A DNA stretch of 46,880 nucleotides, taken from the sequence record MN158206.1; one strand, 5' to 3'. Each line of letters starts with the position of its first letter. Within the stretch, counting starts at the first letter, position 1. This DNA comes from Escherichia phage BEK2. Shown in pieces: positions 1-41,714 of the stretch. A program made the position numbers and the translations under genes. Under the pieces are notes generated by a model. It was not told the origin of the DNA. It worked only from the letters and a program-made list of their open reading frames with translations, and did no database searches.

Positions 1-507
1 ATGAGCAAAGCAGCATTAAAGATGGGCGAAGGAAATTTCAAGGCGCTCTACAACAAGAAGTATGGCGATATTGCTATGGTGGCAATCAACCGCAAGTACA
101 CGCCTGAGGAAGTTTTCGATTTTGCGGTGAGATACTTCTCTTGGGCTGAAAGTGAGGTAATCAAAGCTATTGAGACGGCGGCTTTCCATGGCGTGGTTAG
201 TGAAAGCCTTGTACACAAACCGCGAGTGTTTACATTAACCGGGCTGGCGCTCTTTATGGGTGTTAACATCAATAGATTCGCTCGATGGCGCACTGAGGCT
301 GGATACTCTGATGTGATGGAATTTATTGATAACGTAATCTACGAGCAGAAGTACCAGCTTGGAGTTGCGGGTATCATCAACTCTACCATCGTTGGTAAAG
401 AGCTTGGTATTGATAAACCGCAGGAGATTAAGATTAGCAACAACTCCACAGCTAATGACGTTGATAGTATGAAGGAAGCACTGGAGTCCGTGATTAGTAA
501 GCTATAG
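1..507 (+). CDS. terminase small subunit (begins at window edge; 5' end unverified)
   Basis: 168-aa ORF immediately upstream of the large terminase and HNH gene; synteny-based call; stop TAG lies inside a degenerate TAGCAC box at 505-519. Confidence 0.5.
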   Translation: MSKAALKMGEGNFKALYNKKYGDIAMVAINRKYTPEEVFDFAVRYFSWAESEVIKAIETAAFHGVVSESLVHKPRVFTLTGLALFMGVNINRFARWRTEAGYSDVMEFIDNVIYEQKYQLGVAGIINSTIVGKELGIDKPQEIKISNNSTANDVDSMKEALESVISKL

Positions 508-547
508 CACTTATTGTTAAAAGAAGAGGCCCAATCAATGAGATAAT
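505..547 (+). promoter_or_regulatory. composite early-type promoter (degenerate box TAGCAC-TTATT-GTTA + -10 GATAAT at +37)
   Basis: box 505-519, -10 542-547, same 37-bp phasing as the other copies; precedes HNH gene. Confidence 0.45.
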
Positions 548-575
548 GGGCCCAACAAACTAGCGAGGTGGCGAT

Positions 576-1088
576 ATGAATTGGCATGATTATTTTGAAT
601 ACAAAGATGGGAAGATTTACTGGAAAGATTACGATAGCGAGAGGCTTGGAAGGAGAAGGATACAGCGAAGATTCATAGGGAAAGAGGTTGGCGGCATTGA
701 TAAAAGCCTAGGGTATGTTAGGGTAAACATGCCTGGTAAAAAATATTGGGTTCATAGAATAATCTGGGAGATGCATAACGGAGTAATACCAGAAGGTATG
801 CAAATTGACCGTATAAATCATGTTAGAAATGTTAATAGGATAGAAAACCTTAGGTTAGTTACAATTCAGGAAAATAGAAAGAATCAGTCAATAAATTCGA
901 GGAATAAGACCGGGGTTACCGGAGTCTGCATAGTATCTAGGACTGGCAAATATGCAGCTCAAATAAAAAAGGATGGAGAGAATATTCACTTGGGATTCTT
1001 TGATAATATTCACGACGCGTCGATTGTCAGGGCGAGGGCTGAATTTATTCTTGGGTATCATAAAAACCACGGGAGGAAAGATGAGTGA
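576..1088 (+). CDS. HNH homing endonuclease with AP2-like DNA-binding domain
   Basis: HNH motif 'YWVHRIIWEMHNG...IDRINHVRNVNRIENLRLVTIQEN' followed by AP2-like 'TGVTGVCIVSRTGKYAAQIKKDG'; 3' end overlaps terL start by 8 nt. Confidence 0.8.
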   Translation: MNWHDYFEYKDGKIYWKDYDSERLGRRRIQRRFIGKEVGGIDKSLGYVRVNMPGKKYWVHRIIWEMHNGVIPEGMQIDRINHVRNVNRIENLRLVTIQENRKNQSINSRNKTGVTGVCIVSRTGKYAAQIKKDGENIHLGFFDNIHDASIVRARAEFILGYHKNHGRKDE

Positions 1089-2652
1089 TTTAATCGTATG
1101 GGATGAGCTGACATACGCAGAAAAGATGGCTATCAAGGCCATCTCTGAGCATAGTTTCGAGGGGTTCTTGCGGTGTTTCTTCCAGATAACTCAGGGCGAG
1201 AGATTCAAAATGAATTGGCATGCGAAGTACCTATGCCGTGTTATAGATGAGATTCTCGAGGGAAAGAGAAAGGATACCATCATAAACGTAGCTCCCGGAT
1301 CAGCCAAAACCGAACTTTTTAGCATTCACTTCCCTGTGTATAGCATGATTAAGATTAAGAAGGTCAGGAATCTTAGTTTGTCGTTCTCTGATTCATTGGT
1401 TAAGCGCAACTCCAAACGCGTCCGTGACCTTATTAAGTCAAAGGAATTTCAGGAGCTCTGGCCTTGCACCTTTGGAACGTGCAGGGATGACGAGATTCAG
1501 GTTCTGGATGAGAATGGCAAAGTTAGGTTTGAGTCTATATCCAAGGCGATGGCAGGACAGGTGACGGGAAGCAGGGGAGGCTACATGACTGACGATTATA
1601 GTGGTTGCATAATGCTTGATGACCCACTAAAGCCTGATGACGCGTTAAGTAATGTAAGAAGAGAGGCTGTCAACATGCTTCTCAAGAACACAATTCGTTC
1701 ACGTCGAGCTAGCTCAGTAAAGGGAAAGGAAACGCCAATACTTTCCGTGCAGCAAAGACTTCATGTTCTGGACACTAGCCACTTCATGGAGTCAGGGCAA
1801 ATGGGCATAAAGTTCGACGTAGTGAAAGTTCCAGCCATAGTCACAGAGGATTACGCCGACACGCTTCCTGATTGGATCAAGCAACAATTTATTGATGATG
1901 TTCTTTCATCACCATTTGTAGAGCGGGATGGGGTTAAGTATTACAGCTACTTTCCGGCAAAGGAGTCAATAGAAGACCTGATGGCCATGTGGGATGCTGA
2001 CCAGTACACGTTCCTTAGTCAGTATCAACAAGAACCAGTAGCACTTGGCGGCAATCTGATTAACGTGGATTGGTTCCAGCGCCTTAGCGATACATTCAGA
2101 CCTCCCGCTAAGTATGATTATCGATTCATCACATGCGATACTGCGATGACTACAAAGAGTTATAGTGACTTCTCTGTACTTCAGTTGTGGGGCTATAAGG
2201 ACGCCAAGATTTACCTGATAGACCAGCGCAGAGGTAAGTGGGAGGCGCCAGAGTTGGAAGCTGAACTGCTGGACTTCGAGAAGAAATCAAGGGCAACCAG
2301 TCAGGCAGATGGCATCCTCCGAAAGATTATCATCGAGAAGAAAGCCTCTGGTATCGGTCTTATTCAATCGGCAGGTAGAGTTATGCGAACACCGATAGAG
2401 CCATACGTGCCGGATAACGACAAGCTAACTAGGGTAATGAGCGCATTGCCACAGATTAAAGCTGGTAACGTAGTTCTTCCCGAGTCAGCGTCGTGGTTAA
2501 ACGGATTGCTTACTGAGGTTGCGGCTTTTACGGCAGATGATTCGCATAAGCACGATGACCAAATTGATACCATGACAATGGCAATCAACCTGGTTCTGAA
2601 CATTGCGGACGATCCTAAGGCGCGACTAATGCGCATAGCGGGAATTAAATAG
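1081..2652 (+). CDS. terminase large subunit
   Basis: ATG 1081 with GGGAGG RBS (track ORF 973 starts inside HNH gene); size and position between terS/HNH and portal; stop TAG embedded in TAGCAC box. Confidence 0.85.
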   Translation: MSDLIVWDELTYAEKMAIKAISEHSFEGFLRCFFQITQGERFKMNWHAKYLCRVIDEILEGKRKDTIINVAPGSAKTELFSIHFPVYSMIKIKKVRNLSLSFSDSLVKRNSKRVRDLIKSKEFQELWPCTFGTCRDDEIQVLDENGKVRFESISKAMAGQVTGSRGGYMTDDYSGCIMLDDPLKPDDALSNVRREAVNMLLKNTIRSRRASSVKGKETPILSVQQRLHVLDTSHFMESGQMGIKFDVVKVPAIVTEDYADTLPDWIKQQFIDDVLSSPFVERDGVKYYSYFPAKESIEDLMAMWDADQYTFLSQYQQEPVALGGNLINVDWFQRLSDTFRPPAKYDYRFITCDTAMTTKSYSDFSVLQLWGYKDAKIYLIDQRRGKWEAPELEAELLDFEKKSRATSQADGILRKIIIEKKASGIGLIQSAGRVMRTPIEPYVPDNDKLTRVMSALPQIKAGNVVLPESASWLNGLLTEVAAFTADDSHKHDDQIDTMTMAINLVLNIADDPKARLMRIAGIK

Positions 2653-2692
2653 CACGAATTGCTAAACATAAAAGCCAGGGATGGCTTATAGT
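2650..2692 (+). promoter_or_regulatory. composite early-type promoter (TAGCACGAATTGCTA + -10 TATAGT)
   Basis: box 2650-2664, -10 2687-2692 (37-bp phasing), spacer contains inverted repeat agcca/tggct. Confidence 0.6.
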
Positions 2693-2727
2693 TACTTCAC
2701 ACAAACGAGATGAGAGGAGATAAACAA

Positions 2728-3111
2728 ATGGGACGCACTTCAAAGGTTGTATATCTTGGAAGCAACACTGGAGAGTGTGGTGGTTTTACAGTAGGAAAGG
2801 AATATAAGGCTTACAATTATAATACTGAATATAATTACATTTCAACTTATGATGATAAAGGTAGCTATCGTCAAATCAAGAACGGAGCATTCCACCACTT
2901 CAAACTCCATGATGAGGATGACCATTTTGTAACTGAGACTGAGTGCGCAGTCATGCAGCCCAGCGAAGATAAAAAACCATCTCTAATATATTGCATAAAC
3001 GGTCATGAAGTTGACATGATTGAGTTTGAAAATGTGCGCCATAAGGTTCTAGAGCTTGATGCTTATGGCGTAAAATGCGACACAATCAAGTTCGAAGTAA
3101 AATTCGAGTAA
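2728..3111 (+). CDS. hypothetical protein (autonomous cargo gene between terL and portal)
   Basis: ATG 2728 with GAGGAG RBS; own promoter upstream and own terminator downstream; no recognisable domain. Confidence 0.6.
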   Translation: MGRTSKVVYLGSNTGECGGFTVGKEYKAYNYNTEYNYISTYDDKGSYRQIKNGAFHHFKLHDEDDHFVTETECAVMQPSEDKKPSLIYCINGHEVDMIEFENVRHKVLELDAYGVKCDTIKFEVKFE

Positions 3112-3132
3112 TCAAAAACTGTGTGATAAACT

Positions 3133-3158
3133 AGCCCCTAAATGGGGCTTTTTTTATT
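3133..3158 (+). terminator. intrinsic terminator
   Basis: hairpin agcccc-taaat-ggggct followed by T7 run. Confidence 0.7.
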
Positions 3159-3168
3159 GGAGAAAAAC

Positions 3169-4437
3169 ATGGTTAAGACAGACAGCTACGCCAATATATT
3201 TCTCGGCGGCAGTGATGGTAGTGAGATTTACGGGAGCTTACAGAATCAGGAACCTACAATTCTGGGTTCGCTTTATGCAAATAATGCCATAGTGCGTAGA
3301 ATTATCGACACAATCCCTGAGACAGCATTAGCGGCAGGATTCCACATTGATGGCATTGATGATGAGCCTGCCTTCTGGTCACGCTGGGATGATCTAGAAA
3401 TGACGCAGAATATTAACGATGCTTGGTCTTGGGCTAGATTATTCGGTGGAGCCGCTATTGTCGCTATCGTTAAGGACAATAGGGCGCTAACAAGTCCTGT
3501 CAGAGAAGGTGCCGAACTTGAAACTGTTAGAGTTTACGACCGCACACAAGTAAAAGTACAAACTCGCGAGGAGAATCCCCGTAACGCACGTTTTGGTAAG
3601 CCACTAACCTATCGCATTACCACAAATGAGAGCGATATGTTCTATGATGTGCATTACAGCAGAATTCACATCATTGACGGAGAGCGAATTCCTAACGTAA
3701 TGCGTCGGCAAAATGACGGCTGGGGCCGCAGCGTTCTATCCAGTGACATTCTTGACTCAATCAAGGATTACACCAACTGCGAACGACTGGCTACGCAACT
3801 ACTGAGAAGAAAGCAGCAAGCAGTGTGGAAAGCCAAAGGTCTGGCTGAGTTGTGTGATGATAGCGAGGGATTTGGTGCCGCAAGGTTGCGCCTAGCACAG
3901 GTTGATAATAATAGCGGAGTTGGTCAGGCGATTGGGATTGATGCAGAATCTGAAGAGTATAGCGTTCTAAACTCTGACATTGGCGGGATTGATGCGTTTC
4001 TGGATAAGAAGTTTGACAGAATCGTTGCTCTGAGCGGTATTCATGAAATTATCCTCAAGAACAAAAACGTTGGCGGCGTGTCATCAAGTCAAAACACTGC
4101 ACTTGAGACATTCCACAAGCTAATTGACCGCAAGCGTAACTCTGAGCTGCTTCCTGTTCTTGAGTTCTTAATTCCGTTCATCGTTAACGTTGACGAATGG
4201 TCGGTTGAGTTTAACCCCTTAGCTCAGGAATCAAGCAAGGACAAAGCGGAGATTCTGGAGAGGAACGTAAACAGCATCGCGACGCTAATTGCATCTGGCG
4301 CTATGGATATTGATGAGGCGAGAGATACATTGCGTACAATCGCTCCAGAGGTTAAGATTAGTGACGGTTCAGTAGAGACAGAGGTGACAATTAGTGAAAC
4401 CAGTAACGACCCGCTGGAAGTATCCGCAGACAATTGA
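3169..4437 (+). CDS. portal protein
   Basis: ATG 3169 after terminator (track start 3142 lies in the hairpin); ~420 aa, follows terL, precedes Mu-F-like head protein. Confidence 0.8.
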   Translation: MVKTDSYANIFLGGSDGSEIYGSLQNQEPTILGSLYANNAIVRRIIDTIPETALAAGFHIDGIDDEPAFWSRWDDLEMTQNINDAWSWARLFGGAAIVAIVKDNRALTSPVREGAELETVRVYDRTQVKVQTREENPRNARFGKPLTYRITTNESDMFYDVHYSRIHIIDGERIPNVMRRQNDGWGRSVLSSDILDSIKDYTNCERLATQLLRRKQQAVWKAKGLAELCDDSEGFGAARLRLAQVDNNSGVGQAIGIDAESEEYSVLNSDIGGIDAFLDKKFDRIVALSGIHEIILKNKNVGGVSSSQNTALETFHKLIDRKRNSELLPVLEFLIPFIVNVDEWSVEFNPLAQESSKDKAEILERNVNSIATLIASGAMDIDEARDTLRTIAPEVKISDGSVETEVTISETSNDPLEVSADN

Positions 4438-5122
4438 GAGCCAGGTTAACCGCAATCTAAGTATTGCGGTAACTGAGTTAATTTCAGCAATGAAGGAGTC
4501 AGCAACAAGGCTTAAAATTGATACTGCGGAGGAACTGGAGGAGGAGGATGGATACCTTGATGGGGTAATTGCGGCATTGGTGGCTTCCTTTATATCAACA
4601 ATCCCAGCCATAGGGGCGGCGATATACAGATACAATAGCTCTCAATTTCTTGCGCTTGCAATCAAGACCGGAGGAAGATCCAACCCTAGCGTTCTAGACC
4701 TTGAAGTTAATGGCATTAATGGCGATGAGCCGTGGTATAATGATGACCTTAATCAGTGGGTTTACACCACAAACAAGTCAGCGATTAAATTACTGAATAA
4801 CATTAAAGATGACTTCATTCAAACGGCATCAACAGCACAGAATGGTGACTACGTTGAGTTATCAGATAGGTACAAAACATACAGAAAGCGAACGGCAAAC
4901 ATCGCATCTGGGATTGTGTCAAGCCTAAACTCTACACTTATGAGGCGGAGGATTGATGATGCTGGCGTTAGTCGTTACATCTGGCATGGTATGCTGGACG
5001 ATAGGGAGCGCCAGTCTCACATAGCAAGAGAAGGCCTTAGCTTTAAACTTGGTGGTAACGATATATTTCCAGGTCAAGAATACGGCTGTCGTTGTTGGTC
5101 TGTTCCAGATTGGGAATCATAA
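4394..5122 (+). CDS. head morphogenesis protein (Mu gpF / SPP1 gp7-like)
   Basis: C-terminal motif 'RYIWHGMLDDRERQSHIAREG' typical of Mu-F family; GTG start at 4394 overlaps portal 3' end, start uncertain. Confidence 0.65.
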   Translation: MKPVTTRWKYPQTIESQVNRNLSIAVTELISAMKESATRLKIDTAEELEEEDGYLDGVIAALVASFISTIPAIGAAIYRYNSSQFLALAIKTGGRSNPSVLDLEVNGINGDEPWYNDDLNQWVYTTNKSAIKLLNNIKDDFIQTASTAQNGDYVELSDRYKTYRKRTANIASGIVSSLNSTLMRRRIDDAGVSRYIWHGMLDDRERQSHIAREGLSFKLGGNDIFPGQEYGCRCWSVPDWES

Positions 5123-21714: not shown

Positions 21715-21757
21715 ATAGTATCGCATCCTTGCGATCAGTGTTTAGCAATTAGTGCTA
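21715..21757 (-). promoter_or_regulatory. composite early-type promoter (box + -10 TACTAT)
   Basis: box 21743-21757 (minus sense TAGCACTAATTGCTA), -10 at 21715-21720, leader 'ctccATCGAAACGAAAT'. Confidence 0.55.
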
Positions 21758-22431
21758 TTCGCCAAAAATACAGCTCTTGCAAATCCACGAGGTGTAAGAC
21801 TGCGAATTACCTTTGTTTTCTTGCTCTTCCCGCCTAGCTTCTTGTGCTGGTCTGAGTATCCATCATTAACGTCAACTGGTGAGGCTTGAGGCCATTTAAA
21901 CCCATTGCCAGACCAAATGCACGTCTTCTTAGGATATGCGTCTCTTGGCTTTATTAGGTCGCTAAAAAACGGGTGTAAATCATCTTCCGGCAAATAGCCT
22001 CCGTATTCGTAAGGGTGAAACGTGTTATCAGGTTTACTCCAGAGCGATGACAGCACGCTGACTGGGTTCTCAATCATGTATGGAACTCCGTATTTTTCAG
22101 CCAGTTTAAAAGCAACCTTGCAAGTCTCTGCCGCCTCAATTTGGAAGTTTTGGTTGGCTAGGCGCTTACGCTCAAAGTGTGCTGCCCCGCTCACGGCTAA
22201 ATCCGTACAGGGCGGGAATGCCATGATAAAATCAGGCTTCACATCAAAATCAAAACTGGAATCTATCCAGGCATTAACGTATGTAATGTTCTCATGCTCA
22301 ACCTTTGCATTTAAGTCACTGTAGCTCCCGTGGTCGGAATCATCAAAGTTGAAGCAGCAGCATGTGTGGCCAGCTTCAGCCCAATCATTTACAGCCAAAC
22401 CAGAACCATCAAATAAAGACCAGATAACCAT
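21742..22431 (-). CDS. DNA methyltransferase (FxGxG / PPC / ENP motifs)
   Basis: 'LFDGSGLA', '[12 protein letters not shown]', 'MIENPV'; class (C5 vs N6) uncertain; C-terminus 'NSTNC' encoded by TAGCAC box. Confidence 0.55.
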
Positions 22432-22460
22432 TTCAAAACCCTCTTCGTTAAAGTGCGGCG

Positions 22461-22503
22461 ATTATACTGCACAAAATTTATTGTTCTTTAGCAATTCGTG
22501 CTA
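22461..22503 (-). promoter_or_regulatory. composite early-type promoter (box + -10 TATAAT)
   Basis: box 22489-22503, perfect TATAAT (minus) at 22461-22466. Confidence 0.6.
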
Positions 22504-23172
22504 TTTCTTTTCCAGCAGCAGCTTGATGTCAATGCCGAGATTATTCTCAATCAATCCGGTCAGCGCATCATTCTTTTCTTTAAGAGCGAAGCATTGCGCT
22601 TCATACTTAAATCTTTCCTCCATCTCATTCGAGCGACTAGCCCAACACTGGCGAGCCTCACAAGCCAGCATATCGAGTTTTTCATCGGTATTCTTATCCA
22701 TGAGTAAGATCTCATTTATTCTTTGCTCTGCAACAATGCGCTGGCTCAGGTGTGCATTTTGCGCATTAGCCACACCAAGCATCATTCGAGCCTCTTTTAG
22801 CTCATCAATGCTTACCATCCGGCTGATTACTTCTGCTTGTTTTTTAACTAACGCCTCGAGCTCATGAAGTCGACGGATAACTCTGCGACGAAGAACTACG
22901 CTGTAGCCAGTGATTAGCGTTTCGGTGAGTTCCTTGTTGAGTAAAATCTCAGATGTATAGCCTCGATTATCCGTAAGTACTTGATAATCATCATGACCCA
23001 AATCTGGGGCATCGTTATAATGTAACAATTCATTGATCATTTCCTTTGTGTCGCGAACGACGTGATCATGACGCTTACCTGTCAATTCAGCAATTTCCTT
23101 CGTGCTCATCATGGTTTTTGGCTGTTCTTTGTACGCTTCAATTTTCATTTTAGTCTCTCTTATGCTTTTCAT
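22501..23172 (-). CDS. Rha-family (phage regulatory protein Rha) domain protein with coiled-coil C-terminus
   Basis: 'MSTKEIAELTGKRHDHVVRDTKEM' matches Rha N-terminal domain; start 23172/23148/23112 uncertain. Confidence 0.65.
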   Translation of the reverse strand: MKSIRETKMKIEAYKEQPKTMMSTKEIAELTGKRHDHVVRDTKEMINELLHYNDAPDLGHDDYQVLTDNRGYTSEILLNKELTETLITGYSVVLRRRVIRRLHELEALVKKQAEVISRMVSIDELKEARMMLGVANAQNAHLSQRIVAEQRINEILLMDKNTDEKLDMLACEARQCWASRSNEMEERFKYEAQCFALKEKNDALTGLIENNLGIDIKLLLEKK

Positions 23173-23252
23173 GGCTCAGATTTGAGCCATCGCTTGGTTT
23201 TGCTCTACCGATTTTCGGTAGACCAAGCAGCACCATTGCCACCATGCGACTA

Positions 23253-23295
23253 AATATACCTAAAGATAGTCAGTTGTCTTTAGCAATTAGTGCTA
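23253..23295 (-). promoter_or_regulatory. composite early-type promoter (box + -10 TATATT)
   Basis: box 23281-23295, -10 (minus) 23253-23258. Confidence 0.5.
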
Positions 23296-30446: not shown

Positions 30447-30932
30447 TCATCCATGAGAAATGTCTTTAGCTTTTCGTGCTGCCTCGTTAGCGGCCTTAAT
30501 CTTGCGCCATGAGCGACACTCTGGCTTGGTGGCTAATTCTGCATCAGTGACCACGCGCAGCATGTGACGTTTTTTGCAGCGCAGGGTTAGAGGCTTGCCA
30601 TTGCCGTCGAATTGCAGATCTGGTCGGCAGAATGTGGCTCTAAAACCTTCCCCGGTTCGTTTGTAGTAGTTGTGCGATAACTGAGCACCACGTGCGGAAA
30701 TCATGCCGCGCTTAAACCATTCTTCTACAGCCTGTGGTGTTACCTTTAGCTGCTTTGCGATATTCGCTTTTGTGCCGAAGAAATCAAGAACTATATCTAG
30801 TCGCGCGCGTAGTCCGGCTCTTACTTCATCTTTTAAAACGTAGTAGCCTGAAGGTCGTTTGCGTTGTTTTTTGTCTTCAGTGCGGATAGTTCCGTTGTTC
30901 CCGTTGATTGTTCGCTTGTCGACTGTATTCAT
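30447..30932 (-). CDS. HTH DNA-binding protein (candidate transcriptional regulator)
   Basis: 'TKANIAKQLKVTPQAVEEWFKRGMIS' helix-turn-helix; first gene of leftward operon; GAGGT RBS. Confidence 0.55.
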   Translation of the reverse strand: MNTVDKRTINGNNGTIRTEDKKQRKRPSGYYVLKDEVRAGLRARLDIVLDFFGTKANIAKQLKVTPQAVEEWFKRGMISARGAQLSHNYYKRTGEGFRATFCRPDLQFDGNGKPLTLRCKKRHMLRVVTDAELATKPECRSWRKIKAANEAARKAKDISHG

Positions 30933-30945
30933 TTCATTACCTCAG

Positions 30946-37882: not shown

Positions 37883-39466
37883 TCACCCCAGCAGTCGCGG
37901 ATTAATGTAAACCTTATCACCAATCAGGCACGTGTAGTTTTTCTCGTCAAGCATTGGCAGTAGGTGATCTTTAATCTTCGTCATTACCCCAGCCTGAGCC
38001 TCGAACGGCTTAACCTTTCGAGCAGCTTCATATAATGAGCGAATACCAACTACACCCTTGCCGTTCTTTCCTTGCTTGATCAGGATATCAATCAGCTTAT
38101 TCATCTCGGCATTATCGCCAGCGTGACCAGCGGCGTTAGCAGATGAAAGATAAGTCTTGCTAAGTTCATTGAACATAATTACAGCTTCTTGCATGGTATC
38201 AAGCTCAATCTCTCTTGACTTCTGTGGACTCCCGCCATTTGGGTTAAACCAGTTACGCACAGTGTGAAGAACCGCCGCAATCCTGATGGCCTGCTTATCG
38301 AACTTACCCAGGGCGCCGCGCAACATTGTGTGGGAATACTTCCCGCCGTCCGCAAGGTGAGGCTCCATCTCCTGACGTGCGCGGTTAAGATACTTCATTG
38401 CTGAGTTGCTCACTGTCAACTTAACATCTTGCTCATTCATTATTTCATGAACTAATCGGAAATAGTCGGCCTTGAGTCCACCATCAATTGGCTCATATGT
38501 TGAATCTCCATTCTCATCAACAAACACACGCTCGCCCAAAAATGACTTTTCACGCACAAGCAGAAATCGCTCCGACACACCGATACCACGTGCGCCAGCG
38601 TTCATGATTGCATTGATTGTTTCGTCTTGCGCAATTACTGAGATGCAACCCATAGCAACGAAGCTCATGTTGTTCTCTGCGTTCGCACGCGCAATGGACA
38701 CGTTACCAGCATCCCATGCCTTCAGTACAAGTTCGCTGTTCGTCTTCTTGGATCCGTCACCGTACGTCATACCTAGCAGTGAGTTGACGCTCGTCGCCTC
38801 ATCAGAGATAACCGCGAAGTTACCTTGTCGGTTGTTTATTCGTGCCAGACCTTCCGGCGTGGTGTCGGATACAGGGAAAACGATATCACAAAGTTTCTCG
38901 AGCTTTTCCTCAAGCTCCTCCTTCTCCTCAAAAAGAGAAGCCATCTCTGAAGGAGATTTCTCCTGCTTCATCTCTTTGGATAATGCAGATAGTTTGGCCA
39001 TGATCTTCTTGCGCTCACGCTTGCGAACTTCATTAAGACGCTCAGTCTCAGCAATCATTGGAGCAATCGATAGCGAGTTAATTGCTGATTTACCAGTTGA
39101 TGGCGGCTGGCTTGTCACGACGTAGAGCGCAGTTGGTTGTTGGGTTCCATGATACTCAACTGTAAATCGGCCCAGCATCGCAGCGGAAATACACCCCAGG
39201 AAGTGCATGTATGCGGACGACTCAGGAAACTGAACCGAACGAGCTATGTTAGATGACAGTTTGCCAACAACATCAATATCATTACCTAGTGAGATTACGG
39301 GATACTTGTCATTAGCTGCATCAATCTCGACCGGAGCCTTCCAAAATGATTGAGAATGACGATAGCCATTGGCATTGATAGCGACGCGCAGGGGTGGGAG
39401 GTTGTCCGCAGCAGCAATTGCCATAACCTGTTCAACAGACAGTTTATCTTCGTTGAAATCAAACAT
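37883..39466 (-). CDS. P-loop ATPase, putative replication initiator/helicase
   Basis: Walker A 'SQPPSTGKSA', Walker B 'FAVISDEAT'; N- and C-terminal segments paralogous to 42798..43322. Confidence 0.65.
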   Translation of the reverse strand: MFDFNEDKLSVEQVMAIAAADNLPPLRVAINANGYRHSQSFWKAPVEIDAANDKYPVISLGNDIDVVGKLSSNIARSVQFPESSAYMHFLGCISAAMLGRFTVEYHGTQQPTALYVVTSQPPSTGKSAINSLSIAPMIAETERLNEVRKRERKKIMAKLSALSKEMKQEKSPSEMASLFEEKEELEEKLEKLCDIVFPVSDTTPEGLARINNRQGNFAVISDEATSVNSLLGMTYGDGSKKTNSELVLKAWDAGNVSIARANAENNMSFVAMGCISVIAQDETINAIMNAGARGIGVSERFLLVREKSFLGERVFVDENGDSTYEPIDGGLKADYFRLVHEIMNEQDVKLTVSNSAMKYLNRARQEMEPHLADGGKYSHTMLRGALGKFDKQAIRIAAVLHTVRNWFNPNGGSPQKSREIELDTMQEAVIMFNELSKTYLSSANAAGHAGDNAEMNKLIDILIKQGKNGKGVVGIRSLYEAARKVKPFEAQAGVMTKIKDHLLPMLDEKNYTCLIGDKVYINPRLLG

Positions 39467-39539
39467 TACTTCTCTCCGTATTGTTTCTGAGCGGACATTA
39501 TATCAACGACCGCTTATAATTCATTATCAATTTTGCTAT

Positions 39540-39893
39540 TTACAGGTATTGCGCCTCAAAATGGTACGTCTGGCAAAGAGTGTAAAATCCAACATCCTCG
39601 CTGCGGTAAAGCTGCCAAGCATTACCATCCTCATCGTAAATGTAACCGGCATTTTGCCCTATCCCGGCATGCATAGATACCTGGTAGCGCTTTCCTTCTT
39701 TAAAGTCTTTTTTAACTCCTGACTTGTGGTTAACCTTTGTGCAGTAAAGCGTCTTAGTCTTGACGTACTTACCGCGCTCTTCGAGGTTAACCCATTTGCC
39801 ATCTTTCTTAATCTGCTCCACACCATCTTTAACGCGAGCTTTGTAGAGTACGTTTTCGTTGCTGATCCAGCTTTTAGTAATCGTAGTGGTCAT
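39540..39893 (-). CDS. hypothetical protein
   Basis: 117 aa ORF with own promoter. Confidence 0.5.
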   Translation of the reverse strand: MTTTITKSWISNENVLYKARVKDGVEQIKKDGKWVNLEERGKYVKTKTLYCTKVNHKSGVKKDFKEGKRYQVSMHAGIGQNAGYIYDEDGNAWQLYRSEDVGFYTLCQTYHFEAQYL

Positions 39894-39929
39894 TTTGTTT
39901 TCCTTTTCGTGTTTCGTTTCGATGAGATT

Positions 39930-39972
39930 AATATACAGGAAAAGCCCCGAAGGGCTTTAGCAATTAGTGCTA
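39930..39972 (-). promoter_or_regulatory. composite early-type promoter with embedded terminator hairpin
   Basis: box 39958-39972, hairpin aagccc-ttcg-gggctttt in spacer, -10 TATATT 39930-39935, leader 'tctcATCGAAACGAAAC'. Confidence 0.55.
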
Positions 39973-40208
39973 TTTATTTCCTTGAGTCCAAGTGGCGTTA
40001 TCACTACCTTATACCAAGTTCCAATCTCTGGCTTATTTACATTATATGCCAGCTCTACATAACCTAGCCGAAATAGTTTTGGTATACCTCTGGATGACTT
40101 GCCACAATCACGAATCCTGCCGCGATTAAGGTCATAGCTTATTTGATGAATCTCTCCATTATGAATACAGTGGAGGGTTTTTATTGCGGATTCAGAAATT
40201 TTAATCAC
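39957..40208 (-). CDS. hypothetical protein
   Basis: 83 aa, GTG start; C-terminus 'NSTNC' encoded by the box. Confidence 0.45.
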   Translation of the reverse strand: MIKISESAIKTLHCIHNGEIHQISYDLNRGRIRDCGKSSRGIPKLFRLGYVELAYNVNKPEIGTWYKVVITPLGLKEINSTNC

Positions 40209-41300: not shown

Positions 41301-41343
41301 ACTATACGCCATCCGTGGCGGTGAGTTTTAGCAATTCGTGCTA
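41301..41343 (-). promoter_or_regulatory. composite early-type promoter (box + -10 TATAGT)
   Basis: box 41329-41343, -10 41301-41306, leader 'cttcATCGAAACGAAACG', spacer inverted repeat cgcca/tggcg. Confidence 0.6.
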
Positions 41344-41633
41344 TTGCGTTCGATGTATGCATTAATTTCTTCAGCAGTTTCCATTGCGGAGCGGAAAGCG
41401 CCTTTTGCGTGGCGAGAATCTCGGAATGACTGGAAAAATTTACGAGCAACGTTTGCGAACATCGCGCCAGTGATACGAGAATCACCGAAATTAGTTTCGA
41501 TTGAGTTACTGATGCCATCACGGAACTCATTCTCAGCCATGAACATCTCAGCCATTTCTGCGGTGGCGAAAAGGTCTGCCAGTGCTTGCATGTTTTCGTG
41601 GTCAGCTTTAGTGAAAAGGTTCATGTTAATCAT
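41328..41633 (-). CDS. hypothetical protein (first gene of leftward early operon)
   Basis: 101 aa; C-terminus 'NSTNC' encoded by box. Confidence 0.5.
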   Translation of the reverse strand: MINMNLFTKADHENMQALADLFATAEMAEMFMAENEFRDGISNSIETNFGDSRITGAMFANVARKFFQSFRDSRHAKGAFRSAMETAEEINAYIERNSTNC

Positions 41634-41670
41634 TTTTGTGTCTCCGTGAGTTCTTCGTTTCGATGGAGTA

Positions 41671-41714
41671 ATAATAGCGAATCACACCCGATCGGTCATT
41701 AGCAAAAAGTGCTA
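41671..41714 (-). promoter_or_regulatory. composite early-type promoter (box TAGCACTTTTTGCTA + -10 TATTAT)
   Basis: box 41700-41714, -10 41671-41676, leader 'ctccATCGAAACGAAGAA'. Confidence 0.55.

Follow-up and report, generated by a model that had tools for sequence, protein, structure and literature searches.

How did a gene labelled as a homing endonuclease come to lie between the two terminase genes of a T1-like coliphage, and can its product still act as one? The question is raised by the genome of Escherichia phage BEK2 (GenBank accession number MN158206.1), analysed here over its full 46,880 nucleotides (the window), in which a gene encoding a protein with an HNH nuclease core and an AP2-like DNA-binding domain separates terS (small terminase) from terL (large terminase). 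Positions 508–1080 of the window were found to be an insertion between the terS stop codon and the terL start codon, and it is probable that this insertion is a cassette of the homing-endonuclease type and that the copy present here is dead. The phage belongs to the Drexlerviridae, Braunvirinae, and is Rtp-like. The window is 99.98% identical to the record of Escherichia phage BEK3 (GenBank accession number MN158207.1; 46,884 nt), from which it differs by 7 mismatches and 2 gaps; positions 1–3251 are identical, the first difference is at 3252, and the coordinates of the locus are the same in both. The HNH protein of BEK2 (QGH76702.1) is identical to that of BEK3, and the allele common to the two phages, here called the BEK2/BEK3 allele, was compared with those of relatives using the window sequence. 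No paper naming BEK3 was found in a literature search.

Alignment of the junction with the corresponding region of relatives showed that 508–1080 is a precise insertion, and that the gene it carries is a free-standing one with presence/absence polymorphism. In SU57 and DTL the terS stop codon is TAA, followed by 16–19 nt and then by the terL start codon, and the segment 508–1080 replaces the spacer AAACGAGGGTATAACA of such empty-site relatives. Direct measurement of the gap between terS and terL gave 573 nt for filled junctions versus 11–19 nt for empty ones. In a survey of junction occupancy based on BLAST spans in 60 phage records, the junction was empty in SU57, DTL, SCS31, about 43 vB_EcoS-12210I-like records and several IMG/VR contigs, and filled with the BEK3-type gene in BEK3, N35 (2725-N35), FP and RobRod40, the flanking genes being intact in both states. 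A different version of the cassette was found by alignment at the same junction in Rtp. The distribution is sporadic, as terL is 93% and 91% identical to that of BEK3 in the empty SU57 and DTL, and 93% and 92% identical in the filled N35 and FP. An earlier note on this DNA had claimed that the HNH gene was inserted between terS and terL; the claim hinged on the existence of empty-site relatives, and these do exist, 508–1080 being missing from SU57, DTL and about 45 others.

Both edges of the insertion are compact. On the left, the terS stop codon, TAA in empty-site relatives, is TAG and forms the first three bases of a repeat box described below. On the right, the insertion itself brings a new Shine-Dalgarno sequence for terL, and the HNH reading frame overlaps the terL start by the 8 nt ATGAGTGA, exactly the overlap previously noted. 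The 3' end of the Rao1 HNH gene falls within a mutated ancestral spacer (ACGAGAGCGTAACAATG versus ACGAGGGTATAACAATG in empty sites; L016, 1180–1240), a remnant which places the original insertion point directly after the terS stop codon. The junction of AugustePiccard (L018, 508–621) holds no HNH gene and an annotated 31-codon open reading frame (ORF) for a hydrophobic peptide, whose start coincides with the ancestral start codon of terL.

The product of the inserted gene matched Pfam HNH_3 over residues 57–101 (E = 2e-17), confirming a core of this family type. Pfam AP2 gave no match with the single sequence, nor with the isolated C-terminal 70 aa even at E ≤ 10, and a phmmer search of the single sequence against PDB retrieved the AP2 domain of AtERF1 at only E = 0.68. 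The AP2 assignment was settled by the family profile and a structure model, and not by the single sequence. A profile of 37 homologues matched I-HmuI (1u3e, E = 8e-10) over profile positions 1–113 and the AP2 domains of WRI1 (8e-7) and TEM1 (2e-3) over positions 100–152, and a precomputed PF00847 match is present on several of the homologues. Judged from these profiles and the predicted fold, the architecture is that of an I-HmuI-like N-terminal DNA-binding sheet, an HNH (HNH_3) core and a C-terminal AP2 domain, which bears out the nuclease and AP2-type domains that had been proposed for this gene. The family is very large and scattered among phages, with homologues in 3160 records and at places in the genome that vary. 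The architecture corresponds to 'group 2' homing endonucleases of the His-Me finger classification (PMC5714182), and T1, Rtp, T5 and Xanthomonas phages have been described as harbouring HNN/HNH-AP2 homing endonuclease genes that decay once fixed (PMC2248197). Genes of the homing-endonuclease type have also been reported to cluster near terminase genes (PMC10448857).

The active site of the BEK2/BEK3 allele differs from that of its homologues at two positions. Alignments with 37 and with 60 homologues were counted: His stands at position 79 in 59/59 homologues and Arg in BEK2/BEK3 (codon 810–812, CGT), and position 86, which is Asp or Asn in 58 of 59, is Val (codon 831–833, GTT); D78, N91, N100 and N103 are retained. 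In the profile alignment R79 stands opposite H75 of the D74-H75 dyad of I-HmuI. In the I-HmuI structure of Shen et al. 2004, H75 is said to be the general base, with D74 and N96 binding the metal. The intact catalytic set, namely the D-H general base, the structural Asn and the metal-binding Asn, was not found in the BEK2/BEK3 protein; in His-Me finger nucleases the role of general base falls to the catalytic histidine (PMC5714182). Among the 15 members read from the 90% cluster, R79 and V86 occur only in the BEK2/BEK3 sequence, and H79 is kept in N35, FP, RobRod40 and 13 other cluster members (as D-H, or as H-H in P0129). The presence of the allele in two GenBank records, BEK2 and BEK3, makes a single sequencing error unlikely. 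The metagenomic orthologue P0129, of the same cluster, has D78H, and thus H-H in place of the D-H dyad, along with many other substitutions, and may be another decaying allele.

The pattern of substitution was also examined. Between the N35, FP and RobRod40 orthologues the ratio of nonsynonymous to synonymous polymorphism (pN/pS) is 0.04–0.05, and the intact orthologues are under strong purifying selection. Changes private to BEK2/BEK3 comprise three nonsynonymous ones (A70V, H79R and D86V), all located in the nuclease core, and one synonymous, versus 5 nonsynonymous and 19 synonymous in the other lineages together (Fisher p = 0.058). The BEK2/BEK3 copy is therefore, as far as these substitutions tell, most likely an inactive, decaying remnant, and it fits the life cycle of invasion, fixation and decay proposed for this class of genes (PMC2248197). 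The designation as a homing endonuclease, in GenBank and in the earlier note, is right for the type of gene; the copy at hand lacks the catalytic His (H79R) and carries D86V in addition.

The upstream edge of the cassette is occupied by a copy, ctATAGCACTTATTGTTAAAA, of a 21-nt direct repeat with the consensus aaATAGCACnnnTTGnTAAAA. In the re-annotation of phage TLS (German, Misra and Kropinski 2024), 21 copies of this repeat were described, oriented with transcription and located about 76 nt 5' of start codons, and the repeat was also noted in T1, Rtp and Rogue1; its function was left open, a stoperator, an enhancer-binding site and an UP-like element being the options named (PMC11447400). 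The exact box sequence was not found in any paper in the literature search, which also gave nothing relevant on transcription-start data for Drexlerviridae. The window contains 12 exact matches to the pattern TAGCACNNATTGNTA, and shuffled sequences never reached the observed counts. A TATAnT-like hexamer stands exactly 22 nt behind the box in each of the 13 strong copies, and the full unit reads aaATAGCAC..ATTGCTAAA, then a 22-nt stretch in which a G+C hairpin or terminator is often present, then TATAnT and the leader CATCGAAACGAAA. Most of the strong copies lie in the half of the genome devoted to replication and small ORFs (21–46 kb), and three are in the structural module, each 5' of an accessory ORF. 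This strict phasing in 13/13 copies makes a promoter function of the unit plausible.

Of the copy at the terS-terL junction, the earlier note had described a box at 505–519, here TAGCACTTATTGTTA, with a −10 at 542–547 and a 37-bp phasing, and the sequence confirms the box, the hexamer GATAAT and the distance; the box starts 71 nt 5' of the ATG of the HNH gene. The early-type promoter that the note saw in this element is a putative one, in its activity and in its timing. When a weight matrix built from the 13 strong copies was scored over 93,602 positions, the box at 505 ranked 14th, within the range of the training copies. The −10 and leader together had p ~ 0.005 at the fixed offset and scored under every training copy. 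The term 'degenerate' that had been applied to this element is thus true of its downstream half and not of the box. The hexamer GATAAT is invariant in six of seven phages. As a candidate, a sigma-70 promoter with TTGTTA (514–519) as −35 was rejected, its spacer to GATAAT being 22 nt versus 16–18 nt.

An imperfect stem-loop, GGCCCAAUC...GAU..UGGGCC, lies between the box and the −10-like hexamer and occupies the place taken by terminator hairpins in other copies of the repeat; it has no U-tract and is therefore not an intrinsic terminator. Its fold is only modestly more stable than those of shuffled sequences (z = −2.45). As an RNA structure supported by covariation it was rejected, the seven phages giving three broken pairs, two wobbles and no compensatory change, and an Rfam scan of 400–1200 at E ≤ 1 gave no match. 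Elsewhere in the window, a G+C-rich hairpin was seen in the 22-nt spacer of units 39958(-), 37528(-), 44322(+), 41329(-) and 45557(+), in some cases followed by a T-run, e.g. GCCCCTTCGGGGCTTTT, so that a terminator appears, from its sequence, to be embedded inside the presumed promoter spacer of several units. The leader CATCGAAACGAAA was observed ~6–8 nt after the hexamer at boxes 10503, 21743(-), 33442, 39958(-), 41329(-), 41700(-) and 44853. It would supply the first bases of the transcripts, and is absent from the description of the repeat in TLS.

The terS-terL junction of relatives is a site at which one gene has been exchanged for another. At least five distinct HNH-AP2-like genes, with 29–44% mutual protein identity, occupy it: the BEK3-type gene, rtp20 (Rtp), gp12 (Rao1, TR1-3 and CY1), bas02_0002 (JeanPiccard) and a fifth gene on an IMG/VR contig (L013). 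Four of the five stand behind the same leader of about 70 nt, counted from the terS stop codon to the ATG, which is 90–97% identical between phages, versus about 60% DNA identity for the HNH gene bodies behind it and 76–89% for the last 150 nt of terS. The leader is therefore the best-conserved piece of the locus, and the payload is exchanged. The fifth gene (163 aa; positions 3508–4126 of the 46,391-bp contig) is unrelated to the others, and its different upstream region has TGGTATAAT, an extended −10, and no repeat box.

The claim that the HNH gene shares its upstream element with other insertions was also supported. The repeat heads a second cassette between terL and the portal gene, absent from FP and DTL, which encodes a 127 aa product with no Pfam match; it is not a nuclease cassette and has the same design as that at 505. 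The empty site of FP and DTL, AAATAGCC|GTGATAAAC, shares 7 nt (AAATAGC) with the box. A colinear BLAST comparison of BEK3 with SU57 was used to survey clean indels of at least 150 bp for a repeat within ~45 nt of the upstream edge; at least seven of about 13 indels had one, some at both edges, against a chance expectation of ~3% per edge. Paralogous HNH genes at other places (SU57_00071, Rtp40 and phiEB49 gp40) likewise have, at their upstream side, a box joined to a stop codon. These sequence comparisons suggest that the repeat delimits cassettes of accessory genes, and it may mediate their exchange in the manner of the promoter-early stem-loop units (PeSLs), mobile regulatory cassettes of T4-type phages. 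By analogy, and only tentatively, the repeat-hairpin-hexamer units of Drexlerviridae could be the functional counterpart of PeSLs, serving as portable left edges of nearly every accessory insertion and as crossover points for the payload, the nuclease making the break and the repeat being where resolution and swapping occur. Units acting as crossover points would explain how a single leader, conserved better than the end of terS, comes to precede four unrelated HNH-AP2 genes.

A course of events can be proposed for the cassette. Intact alleles would be expressed during mixed infection, with transcription both starting at the repeat unit and reading through from terS. The protein would bind DNA through its N-terminal sheet and its AP2 domain, and would nick or cut the uninterrupted terS-terL junction, or nearby DNA, of a co-infecting relative without the gene; repair of the break by the exonuclease/recombinase pair of the phage on the HNH-carrying template would then copy the cassette across. 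At the left edge, the repeat and the hexamer spaced by 22 nt probably give the HNH gene a transcription start of its own, and at the right edge the new ribosome-binding site and the 8-nt overlap would keep terL translated. In BEK2/BEK3 the nuclease step has probably been lost. The insertion would destroy the putative target, which would account for the lack of further fixed differences clustered around the junction. The HNH gene may persist because the ribosome-binding site and start codon of terL are embedded in it, such that only a precise deletion would spare terL expression.

Several observations weigh against this reading. With H79R and D86V, homing is probably not the present activity of the BEK2/BEK3 copy, and arginine at position 79 might support a residual or altered chemistry. 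The search for a co-conversion tract or immunity substitutions within 170 nt of the junction gave only three consistent differences between filled and empty sites, namely the terS stop codon, terS position 402 and terL position 165, and hence no tract is visible beyond the insertion itself. As for the promoter, the −10 region (z = 1.7) and leader (z = 2.0) at 505 are weak, with a combined rank of 433rd of 93,602 positions; FP has GGTAAT, the critical A at hexamer position 2 (−11) being lost to G; a promoter scan of 1–5000 returned no site at the box and hexamer; and a 22-nt spacer is not sigma-70 geometry. Finally, shuffling without any nuclease would explain the same pattern of presence and absence. 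According to this alternative, which is judged unlikely, the cassette is a repeat-bounded accessory module moved by recombination at the repeats, as PeSL-mediated shuffling has been documented in T4-type phages (PMC2839356), with the nuclease as a passenger. The frequency of the repeat at the BEK3-SU57 indel edges speaks for it, as do the non-nuclease cassette at 2650–3111 with its microhomology to the empty site, the exonuclease and recombinase encoded by the phage, and the four unrelated HNH genes whose leader is so much more alike than their bodies, which is expected if exchange takes place within the leader. However, the empty terS-terL site has no repeat, so that a first entry needs flanking homology or an illegitimate event; the fifth HNH gene reached the junction without any repeat; and the pN/pS of ~0.05 on the intact orthologues indicates that the protein itself is selected, as expected of a working homing nuclease. 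Homing by the nuclease and shuffling at the repeats are not mutually exclusive.

Alternatively, the box may be no promoter element: it could be bound by a regulator that the phage encodes, serving as an operator, a 'stoperator' or an enhancer-like site, or it could be UP-like, with the HNH gene co-transcribed with terS. This is possible, though on the doubtful side. Such options were named by the authors of the TLS re-annotation (PMC11447400), the box is near-palindromic (TAGCA-N5-TGCTA), there is no canonical −35 at 17 ± 1 nt and no terminator between terS and the HNH gene, and candidate DNA-binding proteins are encoded by the phage, one Roi-like (22501–23148) and another (30451–30936) in the position of the regulator SU57_00052. 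On the other hand, the succession of box, 22 nt, TATAnT and CATCGAAACGAAA in the 13 strong copies is the layout of a transcription start, e.g. one with an activator centred near −42; the terminator hairpin found between box and hexamer in several copies only makes sense if transcription restarts there; and in copies of the T subgroup, among them that at 505 (TGTTA), the palindrome is imperfect on its right side. Two further alternatives concern the protein. A catalytically dead protein might be retained for its sequence-specific DNA binding, either to regulate or to keep other homing nucleases off the junction, which we regard as very unlikely. Its reading frame is intact, its AP2 and N-terminal parts are free of private substitutions, the three private nonsynonymous changes being confined to the nuclease core, and AP2 domains of homing enzymes are described as having been co-opted as transcription factors (Magnani 2004, as related in PMC10448857 and PMC2248197); yet the private changes number only four in total, an intact frame is equally expected after a very recent inactivation, and the allele is restricted to BEK2 and BEK3 among the 15 cluster members read. 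A role as packaging cofactor of the terminase, like HK97 gp74, in place of a selfish one, is the least likely of the rivals and highly improbable, because most relatives have no gene at all at the junction, including the majority of close ones with terS and terL 91–93% identical to those of BEK3. The gene does have terS and terL as its immediate neighbours, with translational coupling to the latter, and terminase-adjacent HNH nucleases can stimulate terminase cleavage, a caveat discussed in PMC10448857, but the occupants of the junction are unrelated paralogues, the combination of I-HmuI/HNH_3 type and AP2 is typical of homing enzymes, and an Arg in place of the catalytic His leaves the phage viable. 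The reading of 508–1080 as a homing-type cassette, with this copy dead, is thus retained as the probable one. The features of the locus are collected in Table 1.

Table 1 Features of the terS-terL locus and related repeat units; positions refer to the window unless stated otherwise.
Feature	Position	Strand	Basis
terS (small terminase)	1..507	+	Pfam GP3_package 5e-13, annotation, junction alignment
terS stop codon TAG, first three bases of the repeat box	505–507		
21-nt direct repeat copy	502..522	+	weight matrix; consensus from PMC11447400
Inserted cassette, 573 bp: rest of box, leader, HNH-AP2 gene	508..1080	+	SU57/DTL alignment, gap sizes, spans in 60 phage records
Imperfect stem-loop between box and −10-like hexamer	528..552	+	RNA fold −18.3 kcal/mol, z = −2.45
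−10-like hexamer GATAAT, 22 nt after box end, 37 nt start to start	542..547	+	sequence; family phasing
Shine-Dalgarno GAGG of HNH gene, 7 nt 5' of ATG 576	565..568	+	sequence; invariant in 7 phages
HNH-AP2 gene, 170 aa	576..1088	+	GenBank label 'homing endonuclease' (QGH76775.1)
Beta-beta-alpha-metal (HNH) motif, residues 78–103: D78 R79 ... N91 ... N100 N103	807..884	+	homologue alignments; I-HmuI profile alignment
AP2-like DNA-binding domain, ~residues 110–160, three strands then helix	903..1055	+	family profile and predicted fold
terL Shine-Dalgarno GGGAGG, inside 3' end of HNH gene	1071..1076	+	sequence
HNH stop / terL start overlap, 8 nt	1081..1088	+	sequence
terL (large terminase), ATG 1081	1081..2652	+	Pfam Terminase_6C, annotation
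terL stop codon TAG, start of another repeat box	2650–2652		
Second cassette: box 2650–2664, hairpin, TATAGT 2687–2692, ORF 2728–3111	2650..3111	+	alignment with relatives
Repeat at indel edges	window 505, 10503, 21743–23281, 37528, 41329–41700; SU57 (L026) 38957–40045, 42432		

Annotations of the locus differ among relatives. The FP annotation has terL begin at an internal codon, 129 nt 3' of the conserved ATG (L003, 2081–2210), and the HNH genes of FP and SU57 (SU57_00071; L022, 401–916) are annotated as 'hypothetical protein'.

The finding is overall an ordinary one, as all its parts are of known kinds, namely HNH-AP2 genes, the T1-like repeat and PeSL-like shuffling. The homing-endonuclease label is in GenBank, knowledge of HNH-AP2 genes in T1-like phages goes back to the genome papers of T1 and Rtp, and the 21-nt repeat had been described; the new details are the H79R/D86V allele and the position of the repeat at the upstream edge of most BEK3-SU57 indels of accessory genes. 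The BEK2/BEK3 allele, a natural catalytic-site mutant, and the intact orthologues form a ready pair for the study of homing at this junction. The Braunvirinae terS-terL junction is a hot spot for HNH-AP2 genes, which matters for phylogenies and for engineering at the locus, and the 22-nt phasing to a −10-like hexamer together with the position at indel boundaries gives a concrete hypothesis for the role of the repeat.

When compared with known systems, the gene resembles packaging HNH proteins of the HK97 gp74 type in being encoded beside the terminase genes, and differs from them in that it is not conserved among relatives, belongs to another HNH subfamily, has a dedicated AP2 domain, and is found in a viable phage with the catalytic His replaced. 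With the PeSLs of T4-type phages (Arbiol et al. 2010, PMC2839356; Comeau et al. 2014, PMC4122927) the repeat units share the arrangement of repeated elements, each a promoter (here a putative one) plus a stem-loop, that flank non-essential genes and coincide with the boundaries of indels and replacements. They occur in another phage family, have another motif and hold the hairpin inside the presumed promoter spacer, whereas the hairpin of a PeSL lies beside the promoter, and promoter and terminator activity and mini-circles have been shown for PeSLs. The copy at 505 matches the T1-like 21-nt repeat at every specified position, is oriented with transcription and belongs to the 'T' subgroup, and its distance to the start codon, ~71–74 nt, is close to the ~76 nt of TLS (PMC11447400). 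The published description of the repeat contains no link to a fixed −10, in contrast to the constant 22-nt phasing found here, nor does it place the repeat at the upstream edge of indel cassettes; within the family, the 505 copy differs by a weaker hexamer (GATAAT) and a weaker leader. I-HmuI, which the family profile matched, is intron-encoded and has helical or helix-turn-helix DNA-binding domains where the BEK2/BEK3 protein has AP2. There is also a close resemblance to the free-standing HNH(HNN)-AP2 homing genes of the I-HmuI/HNH_3 group, such as rtp20 and rtp40 of Rtp and endY of TLS, which likewise encode proteins of ~160–170 aa with a C-terminal AP2 domain, lie between essential genes and show presence/absence polymorphism; the BEK2/BEK3 allele departs from them by the loss of the catalytic His (H79R) and by D86V. 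Of these genes, rtp20 is found at the identical junction and behind the same leader.

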